Made by a program: the position numbers and the translations under genes. A DNA stretch of 64,000 nt from Candidatus Latescibacterota bacterium (lineage in GTDB: Bacteria > Latescibacterota > UBA2968 > UBA8231), in NCBI GenBank assembly GCA_965204725.1, contig OZ242005.1, forward strand, positions 2,240,001 to 2,304,000, in the 5' to 3' direction. Below, in pieces: positions 12,349-46,408 of the stretch (positions are counted from its first letter, which is position 1; the number at the start of each line of letters is the position of its first letter). The notes beneath the pieces are model-generated. The model saw only the letters and a list, made by a program, of their open reading frames with translations. It ran no database searches and was not told where the DNA came from.

Positions 12349-13224
12349 ATGAACTATCGATCCATGCTAATCGTCTGCTTGACGACGCTGGGGCTAGCCG
12401 CCGCTGGCTGGGGACAAGCCGACGGGAAAATAGCGTTTATCTCCGACCGCGAAGGGCACAGTGACGTGTGGATTATGCAAGCGGATGGGAGCAACCCCGT
12501 CAACCTAACCCAAGGACGGGATTGCACTAGCCCGGCGTGGTCCCCAGATGGCGCGAAGATCGCCTACATTGACCGGGGCGAAATCTGGTTGATGGATGCC
12601 GACGGCCGCAATCCGCAACAGGTGACAGACGATTCAGTCGATAAAGCGAGGCTTTGGTGGTCTAACGACGGAAGTAGCATTTACTATATCGCCGCCGTGA
12701 CCGCGCCGCTTGCGGACGAGTGGGACGGCCCTGAGGCCTTCGTTACACAACTAGATGGCAGTGGCTCCTCGCCTGCGGACTGGCGAGAGATGTACCACCG
12801 CTTCCTCCCCGGTCGTTCCCCAGACGGAACCCAACAGGCAATCATCACGTTGTGGGATGGAGGGGGCCATATCCATGCCAATTTCCTTATCCAGAGCAGT
12901 GTCAGCGACCATGAGCATCCGGGTATTCTCCTGCCTGAATCACTCCTGAATAGGCTGACTGCGGAGGAAGATAGGGATAGTTGGCAAACTTTTCCTACTT
13001 GGTCGCCCGACGGCATGAGAATAGCCTTTGCGGCCTTGATCCAGTTCAAGGGTCAGTTTGAGATTTGGGCCGCTGATATAGACGGGGACAACTGGGTCGA
13101 ATTGACTAACGGCTTAGGTGGACATTCTCCTGCTTGGCAACCGATGCTCCCTGTGGCTACGAGCGTCGAGTCCCAAACGTGGGGACGGATCAAATCGCTG
13201 CTTTCAAGTGAGCCTCGTCCGTAG
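12349..13224 (+). CDS. Secreted TolB-like PD40 beta-propeller protein
   Basis: Signal peptide, KIAFISDREG, PAWSPDG and PTWSPDG repeats; C-terminal TSVESQTWGRIK. Confidence 0.8.
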   Translation: MNYRSMLIVCLTTLGLAAAGWGQADGKIAFISDREGHSDVWIMQADGSNPVNLTQGRDCTSPAWSPDGAKIAYIDRGEIWLMDADGRNPQQVTDDSVDKARLWWSNDGSSIYYIAAVTAPLADEWDGPEAFVTQLDGSGSSPADWREMYHRFLPGRSPDGTQQAIITLWDGGGHIHANFLIQSSVSDHEHPGILLPESLLNRLTAEEDRDSWQTFPTWSPDGMRIAFAALIQFKGQFEIWAADIDGDNWVELTNGLGGHSPAWQPMLPVATSVESQTWGRIKSLLSSEPRP

Positions 13225-13290
13225 AGGCGGTTCGCAAGCCGCCCCGTTATTACCACCGTAGCGGCTTCGGGCCGCGAAATCAATAGTTCT

Positions 13291-13323
13291 GCGGCGGAAG
13301 CCAAGGTATTAGGCTTCCGCCGC
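13291..13323. repeat. 12-bp perfect hairpin
   Basis: GCGGCGGAAGCC-N9-GGCTTCCGCCGC in the intergenic region. Confidence 0.5.
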
Positions 13324-13347
13324 CCCCCAAGATAGAGGCACTCCACT

Positions 13348-14193
13348 ATGCGTATCGACGCCCACCTACACGTCTTCGCCCGTCCCAGCGCCGAATTCCC
13401 ACGCGAGATCACCCCGAGCATGCCCGCCGAGCGCGAAGCACCCGTCGAGGCACTCTTGGCGCAGATGGCCGCCCACGCCATCGACAAGGCCGTGCTCGTG
13501 CAAACCGGCGGCACCAGCCTCGCGCATCACGCCTATTTACAACACTGCCTACGCACCTATCCCGACCGCTTCTTGGGTATCGGCTTGATACCGCCCGACG
13601 CGCCCGCGCCTGCCGACCAGATGGACCGCCTCGCTGAAGACGGCTCGATCATCGGCTTCCGGCTCCGCTCGCTCGGCGACTTTTCTCGTCCTATCTGGGA
13701 ACACGCCGCCCGCCAAGACTACGTGCTCTGGCTCTACCTGCGCGCGGACGCTGCCCGGCGGCTGCCCCAGTTCCTCACGGCTTTTCCCCAAGTGCGCGTC
13801 GTGATCAATCACCTCATGGTCTGCCCACGTGCGGATCGGTTTACTTGGGACGCCAAGGGCCGTCCGCAAATCGACGTGGAGATGCCGCCGCCGACCGGAC
13901 TCCTCGGCCCCGCGCCCGATTCGCCCAACGTCTGCGTCCACCTATCGGGCCAATACGCCATGAGCAAGGCGGCCTATCCCTATCTCGACTTGGCCGCTTG
14001 GCACCGCCGCCTGCTGTCCGCTTTTGGGGCCGCCCGCCTGCTATGGGCTTCGGATTTTCCTTGGATTGTAGCCGATCCCGGCTACGGAAAGTGCGTCGAG
14101 GTGCTCGACCACCTGCTGCCCGACCTGAGCAGCGGTCAGCGCCAACTCATCATGGGCGAGACCGCCCGGCACTTCCTCGGCTTTGGGGATTAA
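13348..14193 (+). CDS. Amidohydrolase_2 family protein
   Basis: IDAHLH, VINHL, LLWASDFPW. Confidence 0.85.
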   Translation: MRIDAHLHVFARPSAEFPREITPSMPAEREAPVEALLAQMAAHAIDKAVLVQTGGTSLAHHAYLQHCLRTYPDRFLGIGLIPPDAPAPADQMDRLAEDGSIIGFRLRSLGDFSRPIWEHAARQDYVLWLYLRADAARRLPQFLTAFPQVRVVINHLMVCPRADRFTWDAKGRPQIDVEMPPPTGLLGPAPDSPNVCVHLSGQYAMSKAAYPYLDLAAWHRRLLSAFGAARLLWASDFPWIVADPGYGKCVEVLDHLLPDLSSGQRQLIMGETARHFLGFGD

Positions 14194-15203
14194 CGCGCCG
14201 ATTCATTTTGCCCCACTTCGACGGCGCGCAATTTCTTCACCGCCTGCCCCACACCGCGCACCATCTCGGGCATCCCACGACCGCTGATGGCCGAGACCAA
14301 AAATCGCGGCGCACGCAGGTTGCCAAAAGGGTCTTTGAACTCCGCGTCTGGTCCCAACAAGTCAGCTTTGGTCAGCGCAATGCCAGCGGGCTTGTGGCGC
14401 ATTCCAGCGTCGAAAAATTCCAACTCGCGGCGGAGGGCCTCCAGCTCGCCACACAGGTCCGGGCCGGTGCAATCAATGGCAAACAGCAGGATGCGCGTGC
14501 GCTCAATGTGGCGCAAAAATCGCGTCCCCAAGCCCTTGCCCTCGTGAGCACCCTCGATCAGCCCCGGCAAGTCGGCCAACACAAAGCTCTCGCCCTCGGC
14601 CCATTGCACAATCCCCAAGTTCGGCTCCAAGGTCGTAAAGGGATAGTCGGCAATTTTGGGACGAGCCGCAGAAAGCCGCGCCAGCAGCGTGGATTTGCCC
14701 GCGTTGGGGAAGCCCACCAGCCCGACATCCGCCAGCAACTTTAGCTCTAGCCGCACCACCATTTGCGCGCCCTCTTGCCCGGGGTCGGCGCGCCGTGGGG
14801 CCTGTACGCGCGCCGTGGCAAAGCGGGCATTGCCGCGGCCCCCGCGCCCGCCCGCCAGCAGCACCAGCTCTTGCCCATCCTCGACCATGTCGCGGATCAG
14901 CGCGCCCTTTTCGTCGCGCAAGATGGTGCCCGGCGGCACGCATATAACCGCGTGCTCGCCGCGCCGACCTGTCTTGCCCTTGCCCTCGCCGTGGGCGCCG
15001 CGGCCGGCGCGGAGGTGGCGTTGGTAGCGGAAATCGTGCAGCGTGTTTAGCTGGGCATCGACGCGAAAGATCACATCGCCCCCGTCGCCCCCGTCGCCCC
15101 CATCCGGGCCGCCTCGTGGCACGTACTTCTCGCGCCGAAACGAACAGCAGCCGCGGCCGCCATGGCCCGACTCCACCGCGATGGTCACTTCGTCGATGAA
15201 CAT
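14190..15203 (-). CDS. obgE: GTPase ObgE
   Basis: FRREKYVPRGGPDGGDGG, GFPNAGKST, DLPGLIEGA. Confidence 0.97.
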   Translation of the reverse strand: MFIDEVTIAVESGHGGRGCCSFRREKYVPRGGPDGGDGGDGGDVIFRVDAQLNTLHDFRYQRHLRAGRGAHGEGKGKTGRRGEHAVICVPPGTILRDEKGALIRDMVEDGQELVLLAGGRGGRGNARFATARVQAPRRADPGQEGAQMVVRLELKLLADVGLVGFPNAGKSTLLARLSAARPKIADYPFTTLEPNLGIVQWAEGESFVLADLPGLIEGAHEGKGLGTRFLRHIERTRILLFAIDCTGPDLCGELEALRRELEFFDAGMRHKPAGIALTKADLLGPDAEFKDPFGNLRAPRFLVSAISGRGMPEMVRGVGQAVKKLRAVEVGQNESAR

Positions 15204-15210
15204 GGGCCGA

Positions 15211-16593: not shown

Positions 16594-16610
16594 GGTTCAG
16601 CTCCAAAAAT

Positions 16611-17300: not shown

Positions 17301-17332
17301 GGCAATATCCTCAATTTCTTCTCAAACTCCCA

Positions 17333-19053: not shown

Positions 19054-19058
19054 GGGTC

Positions 19059-20027: not shown

Positions 20028-20102
20028 AATAGGTTCTCGTAAAGTTGACTGTGGTTGGTGAGTGAAGGAAGGTCGCTACGGAGCAAAACCCATGCAAGCG
20101 CG

Positions 20103-23805: not shown

Positions 23806-23812
23806 CGAATAC

Positions 23813-26587
23813 CTAATAGTCCCAGCCAAAGAAGAAGTCCCAGCGCGTGTCGTCGTCTATGGACTTGAAGTCCGTGCGCCGCGCCGCATCCAAGCGAAAG
23901 ACAAAAACCCCGCCCAAGGCCAAGCGCACCCCCGCGCCAAACGCCGCACGCCATTGCTCAAAGTCGTCGTTCCACGCATTGCCCACATCGAAAAAGAGCG
24001 CGCCCCGAAAGGCACTGAACTCCATGGCTCCGAATGGAAAGTGGAGCAGAAACCGATCGACCAAGGGAAAGCGCAACTCTTGGTTGTACAACACCATCTT
24101 GCTGCCCCACAGCGAGCGCCAGCTATAGCCCCGCAACGTCCAACTACCCCCCAAGGAGAAAAACTCAGGCACTGCGCCGGTGGACCGCCGGCCCATCAGG
24201 CGCACGGCCAACGCGCTGCGCTGGGAGAAGCGGAAGTAGTGCCGGTAGTCGCCAAAGAGCGTGATATTGAACCGCCGCGAGGTCTTAAAGTCAACGGTCT
24301 GCGCCAGCCCAACGCTGTAGCGCCGGCCCTCCAGCGGCCCGGTCGGAATCCACAGGCTGCTGTCGTGGGTATAGCTGACGTAGTTGTTGGCCAGCCAGCC
24401 CGATAGCTTCCGCCCCTCGAATTGCCGGTCGATCTCAGCGCGGCGCAGCGAGAGCCGGGTATCGATGCGGTCGTGTTGGGAAAAGGGATAGCTCAACCCA
24501 ATGTGGGCCCCCACGCGCTTTTCGCGCACGAACCGGCCAAAGCGGCTCGAAAAGCGGTCGTTGAGCCGGAACAGGCCCCAATACACGTTGAGCCGCTGAC
24601 CGAGGTGCAGGCGCGACAAGGCCACGTTTAGGCCATCGAAGAAGCCCGAGCGGCTGGCGGCAATGTGCGAAAGCACGAAGTGGTACTGGTCGTTGCCGAG
24701 CACATCGGTCAGGGCCACTTGGATGCCGCCTGAGGTGCCAAATTCCGGGTCCTGCGAGATCTGACCTTGGGCTATGTCAAAGCTCATCTTGCGCTCGTAA
24801 GGCTGACTGGCGACCTCGCTCTGGGCATGTAGGCTCGCCAGCGACCACGGCTCGGCCGGTGCTTCCTCCACGCGCTGATAGCTGACCTGCGCGCTGTCGG
24901 CCCAATCCACGGCGAGCTCGTAGATCTGGAAGCCTCCTCTCTCATAGCCAGAAAAGAGCAGGTGCTGGCCGTCGGCCAACAGCACCGGATCAAACGCCCC
25001 GGTCAACACTTGGGTCAACTGCCGAGTCGCAGCGCGATCGCCGGCTAGCTGCAAGGCATAGATGTTGTACGCGCCAGCGCGGTCGGAGCTAAAGACGATG
25101 CGCTCGCCATCGGGAGACCAGCGCGGCTGCCCGTCGTTGTGCTCGCCGTGGCTGAGGGCCGCGATCTGGTCGGTCGCCAAATCGTACAGGAACAGGTTGT
25201 AGCGGCCGCGCCGCCCACCGGACCAGCGGTCGGAGCTAAAGACGATATGCCGACCGTCGGGCGACCAGTCGGGCTCGCGGTCGTGATACAGGTCGCGGCG
25301 CAAGGCGCGGAGGCTGTCGCCCGCTACATCGACCAGATACAGGTCGGTCCAGCCCCCTTCGTCGCTGCCAGCAAAGACCAGCCGCTGCCCGTCGGGTGCA
25401 AACGACGGCGACTCAATAGCGACGATCGCGGCAAACGACAAATCCCTCACCGCGCGCTTTTGTTCCACATCCCATATATACAGGTGATCGCGGCCCCGGC
25501 TCTTGGCGGCAAACGCCAGCCACTTGCCGTCGGGCGAGGCAGCCAGCCGCGTCGAGAGCGGGTGCAGGGACTCAAAGACCGGCAGACGCTCGCCTTCGAC
25601 CACGACCTCGGGCGCGCGGCCGTTGCGGTGGGCGCGGACGATCTGCGTATAGCCTTGATCGTTGCGGAAGTGATAGAATGCGCTGCTGTCTCCAGGGGCG
25701 ATTTCGGGCTTGATGTTAAAGCCGCGCTGCGTGCGGGCGGTGGCCAATTCGGATGGCGGATCGCGGTCGGCAATCGCCGGCAGGTGGCGCTTGTGCAGGT
25801 GGTATTGCCAAGCCTGATCGAACTTCTCCAAGCTCTCGCCGGTCGTGACCGCAAAAATTTCGCCAAAGGTCTCGCCGCGCCACCAGTTGGCAAAGAGCTG
25901 CTCAAACACGTCGGGGCCGTGCCGCGCCGCCATGAAGTGGCAAATCGACTCGCCTTCCTTGTACATCTGATAGGTGCCGTAGATGCGGTACATCTCGGCG
26001 ATGGACACCAGCCGCCGCGCAAAGAGCGCGTCGCGCACCACCATGTCGCCGAAGCTGGTGCGCTCGCTCGACCAGTACTCGGCCAGCCCTTCGGAAAACC
26101 ACAGCGGCGCCGGGCGGAAGTCCAACACCCCGTGCCGCGCCAGCACCCGGGCGATGCGGTCAAACGCGAAGACGTGGACCAACTCGTGGTGCAGCACCCG
26201 CTCGAATTCGGGCAGGGAGCCGCTCAGCGGCAGCGCGACCCGCCCCTTGAGGTATTCGGTGAAACCCGCGACCCCCTCGGGCAGGATATTGGGGATGATA
26301 TTGGTTTGTTCAAAGTAGATGTGCGAGGAGTAGATCACCAGCGGCACCCGCCGCTGCACGGTGTGGGCGAACTTCTTTTCCAAGTCGGCGAACTGGCGCT
26401 CGGCCATTTGCGCGGCATACGCGGCCAGTTCGGCCTCTTCGGCAAAGAAGTACACGTCAAAGTGCGCGGTCTCCATTTTCCGCCACGCAAATTCCGCGTA
26501 CTGCACCTTGTTTTGGCCAAAGCCTTGGCCGGCGGCCGCCGAGGCCACGAGCAGCCAACCGAACGCGACATATACCCAGCCGCGCAT
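23813..26587 (-). CDS. Omp85/BamA-TamA-family protein with zincin-like and PD40 domains
   Basis: FGQNKVQY, HELVH...WFSEGLAE, WSPDG repeats, LRGY, FFDVG, terminal aromatic residues. Confidence 0.8.
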   Translation of the reverse strand: MRGWVYVAFGWLLVASAAAGQGFGQNKVQYAEFAWRKMETAHFDVYFFAEEAELAAYAAQMAERQFADLEKKFAHTVQRRVPLVIYSSHIYFEQTNIIPNILPEGVAGFTEYLKGRVALPLSGSLPEFERVLHHELVHVFAFDRIARVLARHGVLDFRPAPLWFSEGLAEYWSSERTSFGDMVVRDALFARRLVSIAEMYRIYGTYQMYKEGESICHFMAARHGPDVFEQLFANWWRGETFGEIFAVTTGESLEKFDQAWQYHLHKRHLPAIADRDPPSELATARTQRGFNIKPEIAPGDSSAFYHFRNDQGYTQIVRAHRNGRAPEVVVEGERLPVFESLHPLSTRLAASPDGKWLAFAAKSRGRDHLYIWDVEQKRAVRDLSFAAIVAIESPSFAPDGQRLVFAGSDEGGWTDLYLVDVAGDSLRALRRDLYHDREPDWSPDGRHIVFSSDRWSGGRRGRYNLFLYDLATDQIAALSHGEHNDGQPRWSPDGERIVFSSDRAGAYNIYALQLAGDRAATRQLTQVLTGAFDPVLLADGQHLLFSGYERGGFQIYELAVDWADSAQVSYQRVEEAPAEPWSLASLHAQSEVASQPYERKMSFDIAQGQISQDPEFGTSGGIQVALTDVLGNDQYHFVLSHIAASRSGFFDGLNVALSRLHLGQRLNVYWGLFRLNDRFSSRFGRFVREKRVGAHIGLSYPFSQHDRIDTRLSLRRAEIDRQFEGRKLSGWLANNYVSYTHDSSLWIPTGPLEGRRYSVGLAQTVDFKTSRRFNITLFGDYRHYFRFSQRSALAVRLMGRRSTGAVPEFFSLGGSWTLRGYSWRSLWGSKMVLYNQELRFPLVDRFLLHFPFGAMEFSAFRGALFFDVGNAWNDDFEQWRAAFGAGVRLALGGVFVFRLDAARRTDFKSIDDDTRWDFFFGWDY

Positions 26588-26612
26588 GACAACCCGCTCT
26601 ACCACGCGCCGC

Positions 26613-28484: not shown

Positions 28485-28585
28485 TAAGAAGCGTTCTAAA
28501 ACTCCTGTTGCTTTTGGCTCGTCTTGCCTGACGACGCGAGGCGTCATTCCCGCGAAAGCGGGAATCCAGAAAAGGACCCAGCCCA
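28485..28585 (+). repeat. Composite REP/MITE-like element, family 2
   Basis: Near-copy of 12051-12155 containing GTCATTCCCGCGAAAGCGGGAATCCA. Confidence 0.7.
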
Positions 28586-28616
28586 ATCAGAAACGGAAAC
28601 CCTAAGTGAAATCAGA

Positions 28617-29774
28617 ATGAATGGTTACAAAAGATATAATGCGCTAAGTCTTTTCTCTGGGGCCGGAGGAATGGATATAGGAGTACAGGATGCGGGATTC
28701 AACATTCTGGCACAGATAGAAACAGATGAACACTGCTGCAACACCCTACGTGCGGCAAGAGAACGCGAAAAAAGGGATACCAAAATTGTTGCGTCAGATA
28801 TTAGAAAAATTGATCCAGCCGAACTTCGCAAAGACCTGTATCTAGAGAAAGGCGAACTCGATCTTCTTTTTGGCGGCCCTCCGTGTCAATCTTTCTCCTT
28901 AGCAGGAAAGCAACTCGGCCTAAAGGACGAGAGAGGCATGTTATTATTCGAGATTGTTCGGTTTTCCAAAGAATTGGAACCAAAGGTGATTTTAGTTGAG
29001 CAAGTAAAAGGGCTTCTTTCATCAAAAGGATCCAAGCAGCGCAAAGGCGAAATTTTTGAAAAATTTTTAATCGCCTTAGAAAATGCTGGGTACTCTTCCA
29101 AGTGGAGAGTTATCTTAGCCGCAGATTACGGTGTACCTCAACTACGAGAGCGATTATTCGTGGTAGCCACCCTAGGGAAAAACGGCTTTTCCTTTCCAGA
29201 ACGAATATATGCCCCGCTAGAAGAATGTAATGGATTGTTTTCGTATAAACCTCACATCGGCATCGGTTCCGCAATTGAAAATTTAGGAATACCTTCACCG
29301 AAAATTAAGGGAACTACCTTCTATAACCGCGAGGACAGCCACGTCGATGTAACGCCAGCTAGGGACCGGGAACGCATCGCCCAAGTTCCCGAGGGGTCAT
29401 ATCTGGCCGCGCAACCTCATTTGGGCGAAAAACTGCTTAGAGGTCTTAAACCGAAAGATACCACAAAGTATTTAAGGCTGCATCGGGACAGGCCCGCTAA
29501 TACATTGCGCTGCGGAGAGATTTTCTATCATCCCGTCGAAGATAGGTATCTCACGCCGCGGGAATACATGAGAATTCACGGCTATCCCGATTCGTATATA
29601 CTAAAAGGCCCCATACGCAGCAGAACAGGTACCGTGAAAAACTTAGACCAGCATCGACAGGTTGCAAATTCGGTTCCACCCCCTCTCGCAAAGGCCCTAG
29701 CGAGCAAAATTTTCGATCACTTATGGAGATCGCTCTTCCGCAAGTCTCCATGCGGTAGCCTTAATAGGACATAG
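28617..29774 (+). CDS. DNA (cytosine-5) methyltransferase
   Basis: LFSGAGG, GGPPCQSFS, EQV (ENV variant), PQLRER, QVANSVPP; lower GC. Confidence 0.92.
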   Translation: MNGYKRYNALSLFSGAGGMDIGVQDAGFNILAQIETDEHCCNTLRAAREREKRDTKIVASDIRKIDPAELRKDLYLEKGELDLLFGGPPCQSFSLAGKQLGLKDERGMLLFEIVRFSKELEPKVILVEQVKGLLSSKGSKQRKGEIFEKFLIALENAGYSSKWRVILAADYGVPQLRERLFVVATLGKNGFSFPERIYAPLEECNGLFSYKPHIGIGSAIENLGIPSPKIKGTTFYNREDSHVDVTPARDRERIAQVPEGSYLAAQPHLGEKLLRGLKPKDTTKYLRLHRDRPANTLRCGEIFYHPVEDRYLTPREYMRIHGYPDSYILKGPIRSRTGTVKNLDQHRQVANSVPPPLAKALASKIFDHLWRSLFRKSPCGSLNRT

Positions 29775-29900
29775 CCGCCTCATGTCCGCTGTGCGGCATT
29801 TATCCTTGCAAAGCCGCGACGCGGTGTTATTTTACCTTCGGAAGCGGCTAAACGCTGTAGAGTTGCTCTTGACCAACGAGATTCAACGAGGGAAATCACA

Positions 29901-31271
29901 ATGAAGCTGACCATCAATAACTTTGGCCCACTGGACGACGCGACGATCCAAATCGGCGATTTTACCGTCCTCGCTGGCCCCAACAACACCGGCAAGAGCT
30001 TCGTGTCCAAATCTCTGTATTCGCTATTCGATGCCATAAACGCGAACCATGCACTAGTGGCATTTGAAGCCATGATACAACCGTTAGAAATGTTGTTGCC
30101 ATTTCTTGAAAAAGTTGGATATACGAGCGAAAAAATCTCGTTGTCCGCCCTGAGAAAAGAGAATCAAAAGGTGGAAGCTATCATCCACCAAACCCTTTCC
30201 GCTGATTTCCCTCAAACCGAGAGCGAAATCGGTAAAACTATAGAAATTCAGCCCCATCTAACCGAGGCTATTGATCGGCTAGTGGATAATTATTCAACAT
30301 TATTAAGAGAAATGCTAAGAAAACAAGAAAATCATTTCCCGGCTATTTCTCTAGATTTTCTCGACGAGTTAAAAGAAACATTCAGTGATGCTGAGCTCGT
30401 CACCAAATTCGGCTTACATGTTAAAGCTACCCAAAATATACAAGAAAATTTCCAAGTCCCTGATCCTTCATATCTAAAAAGAGAAAAATCCTCTCCTCTT
30501 CGCTTACACATTGAAGGAATCGGTGAATTTAAGGAAGAAAAAGAAGAGTATAGCTTCCGTCCATATCCCGGCGGCATTCAGAAACTGCGACAGCACTCTA
30601 GGGTACTCTATCTAGAATCTCCCATTTATTGGAAACTGAAGGAAGCTCTTGAAAGCCTAAGACTCAACCCACGGTTCTCTAGCAATAAAAAACAAATGAA
30701 CGGCGTTCCCGGTTATTTCTACGGTTTGGTCTCCGCCCTCCTCACGTCGTCTCCACATAACGACATCTTCTATCCACATAACTACATATCCCAAGACTTG
30801 GATGAACAGTTAGCCCAAGCGGTTGGTGGCAAAATAGTAATTTCCGACAACAATGAATTGCTATTCCAAGAGAACGGCAAGTCCTTTCCCTTGTCGCAAG
30901 TAGCCACGGGAGTCTCTAACCTTGGCTTTCTGGGCTTACTAATCGAGAAAGGAATTTTAGATAGAGGAACTTTTCTGTTTATCGACGAACCCGAAGCACA
31001 TCTGCACCCGGCTTGGCAGGTAATAATGGCAGAGATTCTCTTCGAGCTTGCTCGTCAAGGCGTCAAGGTCGTCATTGCTACCCATAGCGTGGACATCATA
31101 CAGTGGCTAGAAGTGCATATAAAGAAACATCCAGACGATGAGAAGATCGTCGCGCTAAATAAATTTCCGGTCAAGAACAGTGACGTCGATGAAGATTTTG
31201 AAACCAAGATAGCAAAAATTAGCGAAGAATTAACCACGCCCTTCTCCGATCTTTACATAGAGGGAATATAG
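29901..31271 (+). CDS. ABC/AAA_15-21-type ATPase
   Basis: GPNNTGKS, VATG signature, IDEPEAHLHP, ATHS. Confidence 0.85.
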   Translation: MKLTINNFGPLDDATIQIGDFTVLAGPNNTGKSFVSKSLYSLFDAINANHALVAFEAMIQPLEMLLPFLEKVGYTSEKISLSALRKENQKVEAIIHQTLSADFPQTESEIGKTIEIQPHLTEAIDRLVDNYSTLLREMLRKQENHFPAISLDFLDELKETFSDAELVTKFGLHVKATQNIQENFQVPDPSYLKREKSSPLRLHIEGIGEFKEEKEEYSFRPYPGGIQKLRQHSRVLYLESPIYWKLKEALESLRLNPRFSSNKKQMNGVPGYFYGLVSALLTSSPHNDIFYPHNYISQDLDEQLAQAVGGKIVISDNNELLFQENGKSFPLSQVATGVSNLGFLGLLIEKGILDRGTFLFIDEPEAHLHPAWQVIMAEILFELARQGVKVVIATHSVDIIQWLEVHIKKHPDDEKIVALNKFPVKNSDVDEDFETKIAKISEELTTPFSDLYIEGI

Positions 31272-33783: not shown

Positions 33784-34794
33784 ATGCGCCCAGTCTTTCT
33801 CCTGCTCCTGACCTTGCTGCCCGGCGTCCTCTTAGCCCAAGAGCGGCCGCCGACGCCGGTCATCGTCGCCGAGGTTCTCGAACAACCGCTCGTCCAAGAC
33901 CTCTCCTTTGTCGGGCACATCCAGCCGCGGCGCTCCAGCCGCGTCGCCGCGGAGACCGAGGGGCAAGTGGTCGAGCGTTTCAAAGACGCCGGCCAAGCCG
34001 TGCATACTGGCGACCCCCTCTTTGCACTAGCCAACGATCCGCTCCGCGCCGCACTGGCCGAAGCGCAGGCCGATTTCGCGCTGCGGCAGTTCAACCACGA
34101 CCGCAGCCGCCAGTTGCGCCCCACCGACGGGGTCTCCGAGCAGGACCTGCGCTACCACGCCTACGAACTGGCCCGCGCCGAAGCCAAGCTAACCGGGCTT
34201 CAAGCCCAAGTAGCAAACCTCCTCGTCCGCGCCCCGTTCTCCGGGCACATCATCCGCACCTTTACCGAGGTGGGCCAGTGGGTCGGGCGCGGCGGCGAAA
34301 TAGCGCAGGTCATCTCCATCGACACGGTCCGCGTCATCGTCGAGGTGCCCGAGCGCCACGTGCCGCAACTGGCCTTGGGCGACCGCGTCGCCATCGTCGT
34401 CGATGCCCTCGGCAGCGATCCCATCGCCGGCCTCGTGACCGCCATCCTCGCCGAGGGCTACGCCTCCTCGCGCACCTTCCCGGTCGTCGTCGAGGCCGCC
34501 AACCCAAAAGGCCGGATGCGCAGCAACATGTCCGCCCGGGTGCGCTTCCAGATCGCGCCGACCGAGGCATCGCTCCTCGTGCATAAGGACGCCCTAGTCT
34601 CCAGCCCGCAAGGGCCAGTCGTGTACCTCGCCCGCGACGGCAAGGCCGTGCAGCACTCGGTCGAAACCGGGCTGGCGCACAAGGGCTACGTGGCCGTTGC
34701 CGGCGAACTCGCGCCCGGCGACCTAGCGGTGGTGCGCGGCAATGAGCGGCTGACAGACGGCCAAGCCGTGCGCATCATCCGCCGGCAGCCCTAG
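33784..34794 (+). CDS. RND efflux periplasmic adaptor
   Basis: Lipoyl-like G.V..G..V..GD, VRAPFSG, helical hairpin; directly upstream of the permease. Confidence 0.88.
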   Translation: MRPVFLLLLTLLPGVLLAQERPPTPVIVAEVLEQPLVQDLSFVGHIQPRRSSRVAAETEGQVVERFKDAGQAVHTGDPLFALANDPLRAALAEAQADFALRQFNHDRSRQLRPTDGVSEQDLRYHAYELARAEAKLTGLQAQVANLLVRAPFSGHIIRTFTEVGQWVGRGGEIAQVISIDTVRVIVEVPERHVPQLALGDRVAIVVDALGSDPIAGLVTAILAEGYASSRTFPVVVEAANPKGRMRSNMSARVRFQIAPTEASLLVHKDALVSSPQGPVVYLARDGKAVQHSVETGLAHKGYVAVAGELAPGDLAVVRGNERLTDGQAVRIIRRQP

Positions 34795-34800: not shown

Positions 34801-37941
<3,141 letters not shown>

Positions 37942-37996
37942 GAAGCGCGGGTCGCGGCCTATGCTCGCCCTCGCCCTTTGATCCTGCCAAACGTGT

Positions 37997-38034: not shown

Positions 38035-38053
38035 AATGTGAAGGAGAAAGGCA

Positions 38054-40879
38054 ATGTCGAGCAAGGCAAGATACCTGTATGAAACGGAGCTTGGTGCGTC
38101 CCTTGTCCGCGAAGAAGAAGGTCCGTACTCGCTCAACTGGGAGGAAGCATTTCCTCAGTACGAAGAGATTGATTCCCTCAATGACCTCCAAAATGCGGAG
38201 CGCGTCGCAAATGCCTTTCAGACGATAGATTGGTCGTTTACGACCGACAACACGGGTTTCCTAACCCATGACCTGCATCCGTATCCCGCAAAATTCATTC
38301 CTCAGCTACCCGGCACCTGTATCGCTCAGCTATCGTTCCCCGGCGAGCTAGTGCTCGATCCATTTGGCGGCAGCGGTACTACCGCCTTAGAAGCCGTTCG
38401 CTTAGGGCGAAGGGCACTGAGCGTTGACGCCAATGCAGTGGGGGCTCTGATCGGGCGCGTAAAAACCAGCAACTTGGACCGCAAAGCCGCTATGGACCTC
38501 CACACCATTCGCAGTTCTCTGACCACTTATTTCTTCGATCTTCCCGATGCTAAATCCCTGTGTGCTGCAAATGCCGAATACATACCAGATATACCCAATA
38601 TCGATAAGTGGTTCCCGATCACTGCACGGGGCGAACTGGCTTTAATCAGGTCGCGCATTGCGAGGATTGCCCGCGAGAAGGCCCGCGACGTGGCCTTGCT
38701 TGCCCTTTCGCGTATTGTTCTAGCGGCCTCGTTCCAAGACTCTGAGACTCGCTATACGAGCAAGCCGCGTGATATACCGCAAGGCGAGGTCTTAAAGCGG
38801 TTCCTCGGCGCCCTCGATAGGATCATTCGCAATATAGTTAGGACGCAGGCCGTGCTGCGGTACGGTGTCTGCACCTTCACAACGGCCGATGCGCGCAAGT
38901 TGGGACATGGGGTATGCGGGCCTGAGACCATCGACCTGATTGTCACGTCTCCACCCTACGGAAACGCGACAGACTACCACCTTTATCATCGCTTTCGGCT
39001 GCTGTGGTTGGGATACAATCCGCGCGAACTCGCAAAGATCGAAATTGGCTCTCACCTTCGCCATCAGAAGGAGGCCTCCGGGTTTGCTGAGTACCGCGCG
39101 GAGATGCAACAAAGCTTGTCCGGGATGCACCGTCTCTTGAAGCCTGGCAGGTATGCCGTGCTCATCGTAGGGGACGCGATCTATAAGAAAGTCCTTTATC
39201 CAGCGGCCGAGGCTCTGAGCGACTCAGCAGAAAAAATTGGCTTTGAAAGCGTTTGTATCGCAGAGCGAGCAATCCATTCGTCAAAGCGCTCCTTCACGGC
39301 GGCTGGGAGAAGAGCCACTACGGAGAAACTTCTCGTCATCCGCAAGCCCCCTAAGAAGGTATCCCTATGGTTGGCGTCTCCCCCGTACAAATTGTGGCCC
39401 TACGAAGACGCGCTGAGAAAACGCGAAATTGAGTCCGTAGTAGGCGTTCCAATAACCCAAGGCCCCAGCCTAGCGTTGGACCCCTATTCCGCGACGAAGA
39501 CTCGCCAACTCGTATTTACTCACGGATTTGGACTGACGGCGTTTGACAGCGAGCCTACGTGGCAAGCTATCCTCGAAAACGGCTTCGCCCGACAATCTTC
39601 GGCCCGCAAAGACCCCAAGTACGTCACGCATGGCCTACACCCCTACAAGGGGAAGTTCTATCCGCAACTTGCCAAGGGGTTGATGAATGTTTGTGCTCTC
39701 CGGGCGGGTGCCACCGTATTCGACCCATTCTGCGGGAGCGGTACAACGCTCTTGGAAGGCTATCTGAATGGGCAATGGACGCTTGGTTGCGACATCAATC
39801 CGCTCGCGGCCCAGATCGCCAGAGCAAAGACGGGTATTCTCGAAGTAAATCCCGACATCGTGCGAGAAACACTCGGCGTCCTAGTCGGTATGATTGAGGA
39901 TGCTCCAGCCCAGCCAGCAGAAGGGGGGGATCAGTTTGACCCAAGTTGTCTGAACGAGATTTACAGGTGGTTTTCCACTCCAATTATCTCAAAGCTAAAT
40001 TGGCTTCTCGGTGCGATCCGATCTGTTAGCGAAGGTGTCGTGCGGGATTTTCTACAAGTGGTTTTGAGCAGCATCATCCGCGAGGTTTCACAGCAAGCCC
40101 CCAACGACTTGAGGATCCGGCGCAGGAAGGAGCCTATCGCGGACGCCGATGTGTTCAAAATGTACCTTGAGGCCCTCGATTCTCAATACACGCGCATTGA
40201 GAAATTCTGGGCCGTGCGCGGCTATTGTCCGCATCGGTTCCGTCCTAGCAGGGTTGTCGAAGGGGACGCCCGCACTCAAAAGACCTTCGAGGCCCTCGGT
40301 CTTACAGAAAACAGCGTGGATCTTGTACTTACAAGTCCACCGTATGCTACGGCCCTTCCATATATTGATACGGATAGGCTATCGCTCCTCATACTATTCG
40401 GAATGGACTCGTCGGCTCGGCGGCCCATTGAACAGGGCCTTATTGGCAGCCGTGAGATCGCGACTAAAGAGCGACGCCGATTGGAGCAGGCCATAACGGC
40501 CAGCGAGGGCGTCTTACCCAAAACCACTCATAACTATCTTCAGGATCTACACGCCCGGATCGCCCAAGCAGATGTTGGTTTCCGACGCAAGAATATGCCC
40601 GCTTTGTTGCAGCGGTTCTTTCAGGACATGGCATTGGTACTGAAGAATTGCCGTCGCGTTCTCCGCCCAAGCGGTGAAGCGATGATCGTCATTGGCGACA
40701 ACCGCATGCGCGTGGACGGTGCATACGAACGAATTCCCACGACGGACTTTGTTCAGGACATCGCAATACACTGCGGAATGGAGCTAATCGAGCGGATCGA
40801 TATCTCCGTGACAACAGAAAACTTAGTTCACATAAAAAACGCAATCACTGAAAATGTAGTATTGCGCCTAAAGGCTTAA
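38054..40879 (+). CDS. Double-domain amino (probably N4-cytosine) DNA methyltransferase
   Basis: Two complete motif sets: THDLHPYPAKF..DPFGGSGTT..TSPPY and THGLHPYKGKF..DPFCGSGTT..TSPPY. Confidence 0.88.
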   Translation: MSSKARYLYETELGASLVREEEGPYSLNWEEAFPQYEEIDSLNDLQNAERVANAFQTIDWSFTTDNTGFLTHDLHPYPAKFIPQLPGTCIAQLSFPGELVLDPFGGSGTTALEAVRLGRRALSVDANAVGALIGRVKTSNLDRKAAMDLHTIRSSLTTYFFDLPDAKSLCAANAEYIPDIPNIDKWFPITARGELALIRSRIARIAREKARDVALLALSRIVLAASFQDSETRYTSKPRDIPQGEVLKRFLGALDRIIRNIVRTQAVLRYGVCTFTTADARKLGHGVCGPETIDLIVTSPPYGNATDYHLYHRFRLLWLGYNPRELAKIEIGSHLRHQKEASGFAEYRAEMQQSLSGMHRLLKPGRYAVLIVGDAIYKKVLYPAAEALSDSAEKIGFESVCIAERAIHSSKRSFTAAGRRATTEKLLVIRKPPKKVSLWLASPPYKLWPYEDALRKREIESVVGVPITQGPSLALDPYSATKTRQLVFTHGFGLTAFDSEPTWQAILENGFARQSSARKDPKYVTHGLHPYKGKFYPQLAKGLMNVCALRAGATVFDPFCGSGTTLLEGYLNGQWTLGCDINPLAAQIARAKTGILEVNPDIVRETLGVLVGMIEDAPAQPAEGGDQFDPSCLNEIYRWFSTPIISKLNWLLGAIRSVSEGVVRDFLQVVLSSIIREVSQQAPNDLRIRRRKEPIADADVFKMYLEALDSQYTRIEKFWAVRGYCPHRFRPSRVVEGDARTQKTFEALGLTENSVDLVLTSPPYATALPYIDTDRLSLLILFGMDSSARRPIEQGLIGSREIATKERRRLEQAITASEGVLPKTTHNYLQDLHARIAQADVGFRRKNMPALLQRFFQDMALVLKNCRRVLRPSGEAMIVIGDNRMRVDGAYERIPTTDFVQDIAIHCGMELIERIDISVTTENLVHIKNAITENVVLRLKA

Positions 40880-40885
40880 ACCCGT

Positions 40886-41155: not shown

Positions 41156-41180
41156 GATGTGCTCCGCTTCCCTCGCGCCG

Positions 41181-41801: not shown

Positions 41802-41929
41802 GTTCCACCTCATTGTGAATGTCGATTTTGCTTCTCAATCTACCCGCCGCCTCTTCCTCTTGTCAAGCCGCCACGCCCCCCGCAGTCCGTTGCTCGCCCA
41901 AGCGTCAACCCCTATCTTCAAACCCTCTC

Positions 41930-42715
41930 ATGCAAGCCCAACTCCAACAAGCCATAGCAGCCACGCGCGAGGCCGGGGCACTGACCTTGCAGTACTTCGG
42001 CGGGTCGCTCGAAGTCGCGTACAAAGACCGGGGCGATCCGCTGACGGCGGCTGACCTCCAAGCCGACGCGTACCTCAAGCAAGCCCTGCGCGACCTGCGC
42101 CCAGACTGCGGCTGGCTCTCCGAAGAGACGGTCGATGACCGCCAACGCCTCACAAAGGAAGCCGTGTGGATCGTCGATCCAATCGACGGCACGCGCGAGT
42201 TTGTCGAAGGCATTCCCGAATACGTGGTCGCCGTGGCCCTAGTCGAAGGCGGTGTGCCGACCCTAGCGGTTATCTACAACCCCGCGCAAGAGGAAGTCTT
42301 TGCCGCCGTATCGGGCAGCGGCACCTTCCGCAACGGGCAGCGCGTGTTTTGCAGCGAGGTCCAATCCCTCAGCCAAGCTGTGGTCGTCGTCAGCCGCAGC
42401 GAGACCAAACGGGGCGAGATTGACCCCTTTCGCCCACACCTCGGCGCAATCCGCCCGGTTGGCAGCGTCGCATACAAGCTGGCCTTAGTCGCGGCCGGGG
42501 CCTGCGACCTCAACTTTAGCGTTCAAGACAAAAATGAGTGGGACGTTTGCGCGGGCGACCTGCTGGTGCGCGAGGCGGGCGGCCTCATGCACACGCGCGA
42601 TCGCCAAGTGCGGACCTACAACCAAGCAGACCCCCTCATCCGCAACGGCCTCGCGGCCGGCAACGCGCTGTTGGTATCGCACATTCTTAGGCTAATGCAC
42701 GAGCAAAAGCCATGA
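41930..42715 (+). CDS. cysQ: 3'(2'),5'-bisphosphate nucleotidase / inositol monophosphatase family
   Basis: TAAD, LSEE, WIVDPIDGTREF, EWDVCAG. Confidence 0.85.
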   Translation: MQAQLQQAIAATREAGALTLQYFGGSLEVAYKDRGDPLTAADLQADAYLKQALRDLRPDCGWLSEETVDDRQRLTKEAVWIVDPIDGTREFVEGIPEYVVAVALVEGGVPTLAVIYNPAQEEVFAAVSGSGTFRNGQRVFCSEVQSLSQAVVVVSRSETKRGEIDPFRPHLGAIRPVGSVAYKLALVAAGACDLNFSVQDKNEWDVCAGDLLVREAGGLMHTRDRQVRTYNQADPLIRNGLAAGNALLVSHILRLMHEQKP

Positions 42716-44412
42716 CAACGGCCCGGATCGCAGCGGATTTTGTCGAAGAGTACGCCACCCTCCTAGAGCTCAGTGGGGCTTCTCCCTTCCGGGTCCGCGC
42801 CTACGCAAACGCCGTGCGCGCCCTCAAAACCCTACCGGCTCCGCTTGACGAGCTCCTCGCGGCCGGGACCCTGACCGAGGTCAAAGGCATCGGCGACAGC
42901 GTGGCTGAACTCGTCGCCGAGTTCGCCGACACCGGCACCGCCCAAGCCTACGAAAAGCTGCGGGCCGCAACGCCCGAGGGGCTGCTCGACATGCTGCGGG
43001 TCCCGAACTTGGGGCCGCGCAAGATCAACGCCATCCGCCAAGCCCTCGGCATTGAAACCCTCAACGCGCTCGAACAAGCCGGCCGCGCCGGCCAACTCGC
43101 CGCCCTCAAGGGCTTTGGCGCCAAGACCCAAGCAAGCATTCTCAAGGGAATCGAGTACATCCGCGCCCACGAGGGGCACTGCCGAGTTGATACCGCGCAC
43201 CAAAGCACTCAAAGCCTGCTCGCCGCCCTGCGCCCCCACGCCCAGCAACTCGCCGTTGCCGGACCGCTGCGCCGAGCGCGGGAGACGGTCCAACAGCTCG
43301 ACTTCGTAATCAGCACCTCCGACGCAGAGGCTGCGACTGCGGCCTTTGCCGCCCACCCAGAGGTCGCCGAAGTCCTCGCGCCGAGCGCCGGTAGGCTGTC
43401 CAGCGGGCTGCGAGCCAACTTGCACGTAGTCCCCAGCGACGCCTTCCCGGCCGCCCTCCACTACTACACAGGCAGCGAGGAACACCGCGCCGCCCTGTGT
43501 GCCAAGGCCGCCGAGCGCGGACTAGTCCTCGATGAACGCGGCCTCTGGCGCGGCGATGAGCGCGTCGAGTGCGCGGATGAAGCGGCCTTGTTTGCCGCCT
43601 TGGGCCTCGCTTACATCCCGCCGGAGTTGCGCGAGAACCGAGGCGAAGTTGAGGCGGCTGCCGCCGATGCACTGCCCGCGCTGGTAACGGCCGCCGACAT
43701 TCGCGGCCTGCTCCACCTGCATTCGACGTATTCGGATGGGGCCGACAGCCTAGAGGCCATGGCCAGCGCCGTGCGGGACCGCGGCTTTGATTACATGGGC
43801 ATTGCCGACCACAGCCAGACCGCGGCCTACGCCGGGGGGCTTAGCGTTACAGAAGTCCAGCGTCAGTGGGAGGAGATCGACCGGCTCAACGAGGCGTTGG
43901 CGCCCTTCCGCATCTTCAAGGGCATTGAGTCGGATATCCGCGGCGACGGCTCGCTCGACTACGACGACGACCTGCTGGCCCAATTCGACTTCGTGGTCGT
44001 CTCAGTCCATTCGCAGTTCAACCTGAGCCGCGACGCCATGACCGCCCGCATCGTCCGCGCCATCGAGCACCCGGCGGCCACCATCGTCGGCCATCCAACC
44101 GGGCGGTTGCTCCTCGACCGCGCAGGCTACGCCATCGAGGTCGAACCCATCATCGAAGCCGCCGCCCGCTGTGGAGTCGCCCTCGAAATCAACGCGCATC
44201 CAGCGCGGCTCGACCTCGACTGGCGGCACGTCAAAAAGGCGCGCGACCGCGGCGTCCAAATCGCCGTCAACACCGACGCCCACAGCGTCGCCAGCCTAGA
44301 CCACCTCGGCTACGGCATCGGCATCGCCCGCAAGGGCTGGCTCCGCGCCCCCGACATCCTCAACGCACTCAGCCGCGAAGCCATTGCCGTTTGGTTCCAA
44401 AGCGAAACATGA
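42712..44412 (+). CDS. polX: PolX with PHP domain and non-canonical polymerase site
   Basis: FRVRAY, HhH motifs, YYTGS, IPPELRE, HLHSTYSDG, NTDAH. Confidence 0.92.
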   Translation: MTTARIAADFVEEYATLLELSGASPFRVRAYANAVRALKTLPAPLDELLAAGTLTEVKGIGDSVAELVAEFADTGTAQAYEKLRAATPEGLLDMLRVPNLGPRKINAIRQALGIETLNALEQAGRAGQLAALKGFGAKTQASILKGIEYIRAHEGHCRVDTAHQSTQSLLAALRPHAQQLAVAGPLRRARETVQQLDFVISTSDAEAATAAFAAHPEVAEVLAPSAGRLSSGLRANLHVVPSDAFPAALHYYTGSEEHRAALCAKAAERGLVLDERGLWRGDERVECADEAALFAALGLAYIPPELRENRGEVEAAAADALPALVTAADIRGLLHLHSTYSDGADSLEAMASAVRDRGFDYMGIADHSQTAAYAGGLSVTEVQRQWEEIDRLNEALAPFRIFKGIESDIRGDGSLDYDDDLLAQFDFVVVSVHSQFNLSRDAMTARIVRAIEHPAATIVGHPTGRLLLDRAGYAIEVEPIIEAAARCGVALEINAHPARLDLDWRHVKKARDRGVQIAVNTDAHSVASLDHLGYGIGIARKGWLRAPDILNALSREAIAVWFQSET

Positions 44413-44476
44413 CCCAGAGCGGATCCATCGGTTGCTCAAGCGAAAAAATAAAGAAAAAGAGTCTTAAAAAGGCTTC

Positions 44477-45364
44477 TTAGGGAGACTGCCCGTGGCGCGC
44501 TTTGAGTTGACCCCAAGAGGTAGGTTGAACCGAGGTGTTGCCGATGAGAATTTGTTTGTAGGACACCGATTCTCCTGAAATAATCGCCGAAATAGGAATA
44601 AGTTTGTTCCAAAAGAAAGGGGAGAGTTCTCTAAAGACGTCGCCGAAGCCTGTTACTAGGCCATAATCTTCGATATAGTAAGAAGGCCCATACCCTGCTC
44701 TAAAGCTAATATAAATCAGATCAGGCATTTTCTTATGAAAATTAATTGGGAAGGGGAATTCGGGAAAAGAGATGGAAAAATCAATACCTCTTTCCTCCAG
44801 AATACGCCTACGATTAATAGACAGCTTGGTAAATATGCCTTCTCGAATTGGATATGCTGGAATTAAATATTCACTAGGACGCTGAGGGTTGAAGCCGTAT
44901 AACGGGACATCCTGCCCGTTCCAGCGAAATAGCAAGACGCCCTCGTCCGATAAGCGCACTTTCTGGCCGGCCCAAAAGAGCTTAGGTAGAGGCGGCCAGT
45001 CATAATCGGCCCGGCTAAAGACAAAATACTCCGAGCCCTCAATCATTTCTGTATGAGTGATCTCAATGGTTAGCTCTCTATGATAGATCACGAGGAGGAA
45101 ATCGGGCGGGCTCTCAGGACTGTCGGATGGATAACCGGGTATCTCAAATAGCATTCGGACTTCCGGGTTCCAATAATCCCTCAACGACTCCCAATCCCTC
45201 ATCTGGTAATAGGTGTTAAAATAATAGTGCTCATAAGTCCACTGATTACCAACCTCCAACGGGACGAAGTCGGTTGGGGTTATCTCGCTCTCGGCAGTTT
45301 GGGCTTGCGCCGACGGCACCATCAGAGCGCACAGGATAAGCAGCATGAAGACGCGAAAAAGCAT
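44477..45364 (-). CDS. Secreted hypothetical protein, paralogue A
   Basis: GGAGG RBS, signal peptide, PTDFVPLEVGNQWTY, C-terminal TSVQPTSWGQLK. Confidence 0.75.
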   Translation of the reverse strand: MLFRVFMLLILCALMVPSAQAQTAESEITPTDFVPLEVGNQWTYEHYYFNTYYQMRDWESLRDYWNPEVRMLFEIPGYPSDSPESPPDFLLVIYHRELTIEITHTEMIEGSEYFVFSRADYDWPPLPKLFWAGQKVRLSDEGVLLFRWNGQDVPLYGFNPQRPSEYLIPAYPIREGIFTKLSINRRRILEERGIDFSISFPEFPFPINFHKKMPDLIYISFRAGYGPSYYIEDYGLVTGFGDVFRELSPFFWNKLIPISAIISGESVSYKQILIGNTSVQPTSWGQLKARHGQSP

Positions 45365-45481
45365 AATATCCTCCCTAAAGAGATTGTGTGCCGATGTCCT
45401 TTCCAATACCATAGATAAAGGAAAAGCGCGGCCAATGGTGGCATTCAGTCCCGTTCCTTAATTCAAAAGGAGTTTGGCCTT

Positions 45482-46408
45482 ATGGTAACTCAATTCCTCG
45501 TAGTCCCACTGGTGCTATGCACCCTGTTAGCCCCGTCCGCATACGCACAGGATGAAGCAGGCTTTAAGGGGAGCCCAACAGATTTTCTCCCGTTGCAGGT
45601 TGGTAATAAGTGGACCTATCGACATGATTACTATAACAGATTTTACGGTTTCTACGCCGACGGGTTCCCTTACGAATTCATTGATCCTGTGATCGAGCTA
45701 GGCCTGCGACTGACGATAGAGATACCAGGGTATCCTTTATTATTTCCCCCTCCAGATAATTTGATACTGCCACCTGAAAATCTCAGCACCATTTTCGATA
45801 GAGAGCTAACCCTTGAAATTACCCATACCGAGACGATTGAGGGCCATACATACTTTGTCTTTAGCAAACCAGAATACGATTGGCCACCTCTGCCCCCTTT
45901 CTTCTTGACCGGCCAGAAGGTGCGCTTCTCTGATGCAGGTGTTCTACTCATACGCCGGCAGAAAAAAGACATCCCCCTATATGACTTTGCTCCGCCTTAT
46001 ATCTACAAGGAGTATACCACGCCACCATACCCTGTGCTATACGACGACGACCCACACGACCCGTCCTTGCTACCACTTGCAATTCGTCGTGGCTTTCTAG
46101 ACGCAAGATTGAGAAGCAATTGGCCTATGTTTTATCCCCCTCCATTAAGCTTCGGTCCGGCATTCGTCGCTCGTCTTGCTGTACGGGTAGCGAGAAAGGA
46201 TCATTTCGTTTCTTTTCTAGCAAACTATGGGCTCGCCCGATACGAAGTATGGGAACCAGGGTTTGACCGGGTTCGAGTCTTTGAGAATTCTCTTGAGCCT
46301 GTTTCGGCGATTATTGATGGCAAAGAGATCGCCTACCCCTATAATTTTTCTGGGACCAGTGTTCAGCCTACTTCTTGGGGCCAACTCAAAGCGCGTCACG
46401 GGCAATAG
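45482..46408 (+). CDS. Secreted hypothetical protein, paralogue B
   Basis: AAGGAG RBS, signal peptide, PTDFLPLQVGNKWTY, identical C-terminal tail. Confidence 0.75.
   Translation: MVTQFLVVPLVLCTLLAPSAYAQDEAGFKGSPTDFLPLQVGNKWTYRHDYYNRFYGFYADGFPYEFIDPVIELGLRLTIEIPGYPLLFPPPDNLILPPENLSTIFDRELTLEITHTETIEGHTYFVFSKPEYDWPPLPPFFLTGQKVRFSDAGVLLIRRQKKDIPLYDFAPPYIYKEYTTPPYPVLYDDDPHDPSLLPLAIRRGFLDARLRSNWPMFYPPPLSFGPAFVARLAVRVARKDHFVSFLANYGLARYEVWEPGFDRVRVFENSLEPVSAIIDGKEIAYPYNFSGTSVQPTSWGQLKARHGQ

Follow-up and report, generated by a model that had tools for sequence, protein, structure and literature searches.

Three tail-bearing proteins in the window

The window analyzed in this study is a stretch of 64,000 nt from a Candidatus Latescibacterota bacterium (contig OZ242005.1, positions 2,240,001 to 2,304,000), and our subject is a short C-terminal tail, with W-G-x-[ILV]-K at its core, that three proteins encoded in it have in common. 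The first of these is a PD40/TolB-like propeller protein of 291 aa with a signal peptide (P0001, member M18 of the tail set; 12349..13224, + strand; Pfam PD40, 2.3e-13). Its 21-aa tail, TSVESQTWGRIKSLLSSEPRP, is encoded at 13159..13221 and is followed by the stop codon at 13222-13224. The other two proteins are paralogues from an unnamed family. P0002 (member M04; 45482..46408, + strand; 308 aa) ends in the 17-aa tail TSVQPTSWGQLKARHGQ (46355..46405, stop codon 46406-46408). Its paralogue M42, which also has a signal peptide, measures 295 aa from the start at 45364 (44477..45364, − strand), the longest open reading frame (ORF) extending to 45412, and ends in the 19-aa tail TSVQPTSWGQLKARHGQSP (44480..44536, stop codon 44477-44479). 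The M42 and P0002 genes are transcribed divergently from a 117-bp spacer (45365-45481), and a Pfam scan of both proteins gave no family match. An earlier note on this DNA had described three signal-peptide proteins from two unrelated families that end in the motif. All three exist and carry it, and one family being a PD40 propeller and the other having no Pfam match, the two are indeed unrelated. Yet, the motif lies near the C-terminus and not at it, since 9 residues follow the Lys in P0001 (SLLSSEPRP), 7 in M42 (ARHGQSP) and 5 in P0002 (ARHGQ). The gene at 44477-45364 proved real as well; it is on the minus strand, the plus frame being full of stops.

We modeled the P0002 family with AlphaFold2 (AF2). 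The model (predicted local distance difference test, pLDDT, 83; predicted template modeling score, pTM, 0.79) has a β-rich fold that stops near residue 284, while residues 285-308 form a low-confidence appendix whose last two 10-residue blocks have pLDDT values of 59 and 63. A Foldseek search with this model found no relatives in the PDB at E ≤ 0.001, and the passenger is therefore a family of unknown fold class. Within the family, 77 of the 87 homologues retain the tail, even at identities as low as 33%.

Census and consensus of the tail

The tail is a real, strongly constrained and portable C-terminal tag that is absent from the Pfam and NCBIfam libraries. In a six-frame scan of the genome (5.43 Mb in two contigs; 48,060 stop-to-stop segments of at least 60 aa), the pattern [ST].V.{2,6}[STA]WG.[ILVM]K gave 41 matches, 40 of which lie 3-14 residues before a stop and one 34. 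For the shorter WG.[ILVM]K, 50 of 74 matches in 6.44 million six-frame residues fall within 20 residues of the stop. Altogether 46 ORFs of at least 100 aa carry T-S-V-E-x2-[ST]-W-G-x-[ILV]-K-x2-Φ (Φ, hydrophobic) with a stop 3-16 residues past the Lys, and variants of the tail, e.g., with W-A or with F replacing I/L/V, occur on 3-7 further ORFs. Among the 46 tails we counted T in 43, S or A in 40, V in 42, E in 32 and S or T in 44; then come W, G, R/Q, I/L/V, K, A/S, any residue and a hydrophobic one (40/46), followed by 0-9 residues. The resulting consensus of about 17 residues reads T-[SA]-V-E-x-x-[ST]-W-G-x-[ILV]-K-x-x-[FYL]-x(1-2), where the Lys is invariant by definition of the search pattern. 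The commonest number of residues after this Lys is 5 (range 3-16), and the Lys stands at position −6 in 18 of the 46 tails.

When trimmed of their tails, the members fall into 13 BLAST families: 26 CBM9-like proteins, four of the P0002 family, three Cache proteins (all of the stand-alone type), three PD40 and two FGE-sulfatase proteins, and eight singletons, which include WD40, SBP_bac_3-like, LTXXQ-like and NosD-like proteins. A signal-peptide-like N-terminus was called, by a crude hydrophobic N-terminus score with a threshold of ≥1.8, in 45 of 46 members vs. 211 of 597 size-matched control genes, and a lipobox-like motif in only one of the 46. The earlier note had proposed a proteome-wide motif scan and had named two outcomes that would speak against a sorting tag, namely that the motif is not enriched at the C-termini of exported proteins or that it is part of a shared domain. 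We found the motif to be overwhelmingly C-terminal and on signal-peptide proteins, it follows 13 unrelated families, and in the P0002 model it is a low-confidence appendix. That the tail is a sorting tag we infer from this anatomy.

Our searches returned no known signal that covers the tail. No Pfam or NCBIfam model overlapped it in the 26 proteins scanned, the NCBIfam CTERM models gave no match at E ≤ 1, and no description of the motif was found in the searchable literature. Tripartite sortase-type signals (LPXTG, PEP-CTERM, GlyGly-CTERM, MYXO-CTERM) resemble it as short C-terminal motifs on many unrelated exported proteins (bioRxiv 10.1101/2023.06.07.544157). They differ in the transmembrane helix and basic cluster that come after the motif in substrates of sortase, exosortase and rhombosortase; the tail has neither, and no hydrophobic segment was seen past the motif in the 46 members, only 3-16 mostly polar residues and the stop. 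With a lipobox-like motif in one member only, the tail proteins would be exported and have no other anchor. Nor does the tail look like an outer-membrane β-signal. Its passengers (CBM9-like, Cache, PD40, FGE-sulfatase) are soluble proteins and not barrels, and instead of a terminal aromatic residue it has a last residue that varies, with the conserved hydrophobic one at least 1-2 positions before the end.

Residue pattern of the tail

Set against shuffled tails, the mean hydrophobic moment of the 15-residue tail core had a z of 10.5 at 180 degrees; at 100 degrees z was −1.6, and 0.7 when taken over 9 aa. One face of the alternating pattern consists of T, V, x, S, G, I/L/V, A/S and Φ. Judged by this pattern of residues, the tail alternates like a β-strand and not like a helix. 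That an amphipathic α-helix, like the C-terminal one of PBP5, attaches the protein peripherally to the membrane is thus very improbable. T/S-x-x-E resembles a helix N-capping box, and in the AlphaFold model residues 297-306 of P0002 are helical, but the pLDDT of that helix is only about 60. The 100-degree periodicity of such anchors is missing, as the moment at this angle is no higher than in shuffled tails, and only about 4 of 17 residues are hydrophobic. The invariant polar or small residues T, G and K argue for recognition by a protein and against a helical anchor.

Distribution of the tail across genomes

For a survey of the phylum we ran a degenerate DNA pattern for the tail over 168 species genomes, with the reversed pattern as control. 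This genome has 37 sites for the pattern and the 30 others of its genus have 7-76, while the reversed control gave 0-1. Among the families of the phylum, numbered here f1 to f14, f1 was tail-positive in 75 of 75 genomes, and f5-f9, f11 and f12, which belong to other classes, were also tail-positive. In f2-f4, from the same class as f1, the pattern stayed at background, and f10, f13 and f14 (19 genomes) had no site at all. A stricter DNA pattern, applied collection-wide to one genome per species, matched at least 123 stretches. The stop lies 2-11 codons past the Lys in all 123 matches listed, most often 4 (48 matches) or 5 (44), and the third residue after the Lys is F, Y, L, I, M or V in 117 of 122 listed. 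Most of the matches listed are labeled Latescibacterota; the others carry the labels Gemmatimonadota, Eisenbacteria/Eiseniibacteriota, Krumholzibacteriia, Handelsmanbacteria and Melioribacteraceae.

The earlier note had also suggested a search for a co-distributed translocon or peptidase. PorU, a type IX secretion system (T9SS) protein, scored over the cut-off in every tail-positive family of the phylum, and the sister families f2-f4 lack both PorU and the tail. PorU was likewise present in 5 of 5 tail-holding genomes with other labels, a count that has no base-rate control and in which one of the five genomes belongs to f1. The co-distribution holds in one direction only: PorU is also found in the tail-less f10, f13 and f14, and a T9SS is therefore not sufficient for the tail.

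Common features of the tail and T9SS C-terminal domains

Among T9SS genes, the genome of the window has PorU (623 bits against a cut-off of 420), SprA and, adjoining PorU, a member of the PorV family, and 68 of its proteins have a C-terminal domain (CTD) of the FlgD-Ig type. Three of these are encoded in the window, all on the + strand: an FG-GAP protein at 7550-9808 (TAVQ linker and CTD at 9494..9805; Pfam FlgD_ig, 3e-13), a second FG-GAP protein at 9882-12053 (TAVQ linker and CTD at 11739..12050; 4.5e-13) and a leucine-rich repeat (LRR) protein at 49650-51935 (TTVE linker and CTD at 51621..51932; 4e-08). In each of them the linker motif pointed out in the earlier note (TAVQ, TAVQ and TTVE, respectively) is present 20 residues before PNPFN. 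Across the genome T[ASTN][VI] occurs 19-24 residues (mode 20) upstream of NPF in 42 of 67 FlgD-Ig CTDs, many of them paralogues, against an expected 2.6%. We also modeled a CTD together with 40 upstream residues (AF2, pLDDT 85.8; alignment rows picked for having the T-x-V motif). In this model TAVE lies in the linker at pLDDT 57-58 and the sandwich begins about 10 residues later. Going by the model, the T-x-V-E of the tail is a conserved motif that is also present in the linker, predicted to be unstructured, before FlgD-Ig CTDs. The same spacing of T-x-V before CTDs is seen in the tail-negative families f10 (12/13 genomes) and f13 and in some f14 genomes. As the motif is found in tail-negative T9SS lineages, it belongs to the general T9SS system, and we rejected it as a tail-specific, co-varying motif.

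A second likeness concerns the Lys. The CTDs of this genome end in [RK]-K-M-x-[LK]-[LI]-[KR], 60 of the 67 having K or R at −6, and the invariant Lys of the tail is as far from the C-terminus as this conserved Lys/Arg, −6 being commonest in both. According to PMC10994853, type A CTDs bind SprA and the loops of PorV, and the CTD makes only one conserved contact, through a nearly invariant Lys close to the C-terminus that touches PorV and matters for function.

Compared with the T9SS type A CTD (TIGR04183/PF18962; here in the FlgD_ig-like form PF13860), the tail is likewise C-terminal on Sec-exported proteins and portable, occurs, within the genomes surveyed, only where PorU, PorV and SprA genes occur, follows the same T-x-V-E linker and has a Lys about 5 residues from its end; relatives of one passenger carry either ending. 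It thus has the Sec signal peptide, the T9SS co-occurrence and the near-terminal Lys of that class and lacks the folded domain. The tail measures about 17 residues (17-25), where the CTD folds its seven strands into a sandwich of some 80-90 residues (70-100 across the class); the family hidden Markov models do not match it, it sits on small binding proteins and not on large surface proteins, and it is absent from some T9SS-positive lineages. A closer parallel in length comes from HBP35 of Porphyromonas gingivalis, for which PMC4804311 reports that the last 22 residues of the CTD, i.e., its last two strands, suffice for secretion of green fluorescent protein (GFP) and that the final strand, which can be exchanged between molecules, is indispensable. 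That 22-residue end resembles the tail as a short C-terminal peptide of similar length with a conserved Lys strand. It is, on the other hand, an engineered truncation of a CTD in Bacteroidota, while the tail would be natural and widespread with an invariant W-G of its own.

Alternative endings of CBM9-like passengers

To compare endings on one passenger type, a CBM9-like member was searched against 1.84 billion representative proteins and the best 150 matches were taken, 97 of which are at least 250 aa long. Among these 97 relatives 67 have the tail, 5 a FlgD-Ig CTD, 5 a PKD-like end and 20 other endings. T-x-V-E leads into either the tail or the FlgD-Ig CTD; in P0381 (385 aa), for instance, the CBM9-like passenger is followed by TPVEE and then by the CTD. 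Together with the linkers before 42 of 67 CTDs, the 67 tails vs. 5 CTDs bear out the earlier suggestion of two interchangeable endings behind a common linker motif. In tail-negative f10 (loci L034-L043; genomes G011 and G015) the CBM9-like proteins end in a PKD-like domain at 9 of 9 loci, and this end has the pattern W.FGDG...NP.H.Y...VK-stop in place of the tail. The PKD-type end was considered as the equivalent tag of f10 and rejected, as its pattern was found at 5 sites only, all in f10 and 3 of them in CBM9-like loci.

These data also bear on the idea that the tail is a processing or turnover signal, i.e., a propeptide or degron for a periplasmic C-terminal protease that sets the maturation or lifetime of a protein and not its location. 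A short, unstructured but conserved C-terminal extension outside the fold, with a variable 3-16 residues after the Lys, would suit such a role. We nevertheless regard it as improbable. One would not expect a degron to be retained on 13 families, in the P0002 family the tail survives down to 33% identity (77/87 homologues), and it is kept across several labeled phyla with invariant W, G and K; the T9SS-type linker motif and the exchange of tail and CTD would, moreover, have no explanation.

Gene neighborhoods and the ~880-aa family

A member of an ~880-aa protein family with 38 paralogues lies within 6 genes of 23 of the 26 CBM9-like tail genes, while no recurrent neighbors were found for the other 20 tail genes. 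A reader of the tail could thus not be traced through gene neighborhood, as conserved neighbors exist for the CBM9-like family only. The ~880-aa family is strong in most tail-positive families (E < 1e-150 in f1, f5, f6, f9, f11 and f12; about 1e-50 in f7 and f8). In the tail-negative ones it reaches only 1e-27 to 1e-36 in f10 and f13, occurs in 1 of 5 f14 genomes and is missing from f2-f4. As a universal receptor of the tail the family was rejected, its profile being graded and not clean, and no fusion with a passenger appearing among the 120 homologues listed.

This pattern is of interest for an alternative in which the tail works independently of T9SS as a peptide for docking or anchoring: by adding a β-strand to some other protein of the envelope, it would tether small binders at the outer membrane or in the periplasm without export; the partner could be an outer-membrane barrel, e.g., of the ~880-aa family. 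The β-strand alternation would fit, many passengers are typical periplasmic binders, the ~880-aa family combines proximity to the CBM9-like tail genes with a profile that partly follows the tail, and the CBM9-like homologues of f10 carry their PKD-like end instead of the tail at 9 of 9 loci. Still, the profile may simply follow phylogeny, the 20 tail proteins of other types have no recurrent neighbor, and the lack of fusions among the homologues listed applies here too. Since a docking peptide also leaves the linker motif common to CTDs and the CTD-bearing relatives unexplained, we consider this main rival reading rather unlikely.

The CBM9-like genes belong to a massively paralogous cassette, seen for example at C1:1330001-1349000 (L031) and 892001-911500 (L032) and at about 25-38 other loci, outside the window. 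Its discoidin (F5_F8_type_C) proteins, 1-4 in number (85 copies), have CHU_C/FlgD_ig-like CTDs and accompany a CBM9-like tail protein. The other components are the ~880-aa family (38 copies, without a match in Pfam, NCBIfam or the PDB), a SurA-like peptidyl-prolyl isomerase (25), an ~240-aa lipoprotein (11), tetratricopeptide repeat (TPR) and FG-GAP/ASPIC proteins and an SBP_bac_1/ATP-binding cassette (ABC) transporter. The cassette has the look of a locus for glycan capture, of a kind not yet described.

PorV-family proteins as candidate readers

Different CTD types are served by specialized shuttles (PMC12618676), and 12 PorV/PorQ-family matches were detected in the genome. In a tree of 66 PorV-family proteins, which sampled the 30 best loci per search, one of them, here called PorV-T (C1:249153-250106), falls into a clade found only in tail-positive genomes (Shimodaira-Hasegawa-like approximate likelihood ratio test, SH-aLRT, 96). 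Its phylum profile fits 6 tail-positive families and fails for f8 (2.5e-15) and f11 (3.6e-12), whose values overlap the tail-negative range of 1e-8 to 1e-20. Of three PorV-T loci, one comes after a tail gene, one after a CTD protein and one has no cargo nearby. PorV-T thus tracks the tail only in part; we rejected it as a tail-specific paralogue and keep it as a lead only. Only one tail gene (M45) has a PorV-like gene behind it, 0.8 kb downstream. Type B CTDs, read by PorP/SprF-like shuttles, offer a parallel in that C-terminal signals use specialized PorV-/PorP-like barrels (PMC12618676). They differ from the tail in being folded domains that are usually genetically linked to their shuttle, which tail genes seldom are.

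A further PorV-containing locus is an operon-like run at G000:C1:3799234-3803580 (− strand), where a gene for a 562-aa protein with a CTD-like end is followed by two PorV-family barrel genes. The run ends with two exported proteins whose divergent tails, FSWGELRAVFSQ and FSWAALKQQVAP, both lack T-x-V-E.

Proposed function of the tail

We propose that the tail is a minimal signal for export or anchoring, linked to the T9SS, in which the linker motif of the CTDs is combined with one Lys-bearing β-strand, and give this reading a probability of about 0.5. It would act as a portable signal of some 17 residues on small, soluble, Sec-exported proteins. Sec would deliver the protein to the periplasm, as the signal peptides suggest. 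There the tail, placed outside the folded passenger, would form an amphipathic β-strand with T, V, S, G, I/L/V, A/S and Φ on its small and hydrophobic face; its position as an appendix and its alternation agree with this, and the strand itself is a prediction. The strand, with its invariant Lys about 5 residues from the end, may then dock on a T9SS component by strand addition, the likeliest dock being a PorV-family outer-membrane shuttle at the SprA translocon, in the manner of the last strands of a full CTD. T-x-V-E would mark the site at which the PorU sortase cuts off the signal and either anchors the protein at the cell surface or releases it there. The earlier note had spoken of an uncharacterized secretion or anchoring route; on this point we depart from it, as the evidence favors the known type IX system instead. 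A more far-reaching version is tentative and carries lower odds than the general proposal. It holds that a minimal T9SS signal occurs naturally in the form of the tail, with one amphipathic, Lys-bearing β-strand behind the sortase-site linker T-x-V-E, and that a dedicated PorV-family shuttle reads it, so that several uncultured phyla of the Fibrobacteres-Chlorobi-Bacteroidetes (FCB) group could do without a folded CTD in bringing dozens of small binding proteins to the surface.

Several observations weigh against a T9SS-linked signal. The matching Lys spacing of tail and CTD could be a coincidence, and an hhalign comparison of the two aligns T-x-V-E only, with E = 0.22 over 8 columns. The 19 genomes of f10, f13 and f14 are T9SS-positive and lack the tail, and the co-occurrence of tail and T9SS elsewhere may only reflect shared ancestry. 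A full CTD is a folded sandwich that buries about 1,850 Å² (PMC10994853), an area that a single strand cannot copy. AlphaFold, at low confidence, draws SWGQLKARHG of P0002 as a helix. Several passengers are of usually periplasmic types (SBP_bac_3, stand-alone Cache, LTXXQ/CpxP-like, TolB-like PD40), and proteins with the tail fall far short of CTD proteins in size (median 303.5 vs. 729.5 aa). Finally, only the WD40 and FGE-sulfatase families use both endings in this genome.

Other genes in the window

The remainder of the window contains several further gene groups. A gene at 23813-26605 (− strand) encodes a 930-aa protein in which Pfam finds an unusual fusion of a PD40 propeller (9.5e-31) with a C-terminal Omp85-superfamily barrel (7.6e-10). 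A C-5 cytosine DNA methylase gene followed by an AAA_15/AAA_21 ATPase gene (28524-31271, + strand) and a gene for a 941-aa protein with two N6/N4 methylase regions (38054-40879, + strand) flank a resistance-nodulation-division (RND) efflux pair, HlyD-like (33784-34794) and AcrB-like (34801-37941). At 56496-61389 (− strand) lies a BatD/TPR/VWA/BatA-VWA run that is aerotolerance-operon-like; the C-terminal half of its TPR protein (58256-59167) is long, rich in Q, D and E and of low complexity.

Significance

More than once, C-terminal sorting signals have pointed the way to their reading machinery; sortases, exosortases and the T9SS are examples. Here about 1% of the proteome carries the tail, and in several uncultured phyla dozens of proteins do so in each genome. 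As it is named neither in the family libraries nor in searchable papers, proteins that carry it are annotated without a clue to their location; the searchable literature likewise offered nothing relevant on a T9SS of Latescibacter or on sorting signals of Eisenbacteria, Latescibacter or Krumholzibacter. T-x-V-E, common to the tail and full CTDs, is a concrete candidate for the sortase processing site. Should the tail not be a T9SS signal, an unknown envelope-sorting or docking system would still be there to be found. If it is indeed a minimal T9SS signal, the determinants of type IX secretion would shrink to about 17 residues, an export tag of this length would be at hand for engineering, and the tail would show what the translocon and its shuttles recognize.

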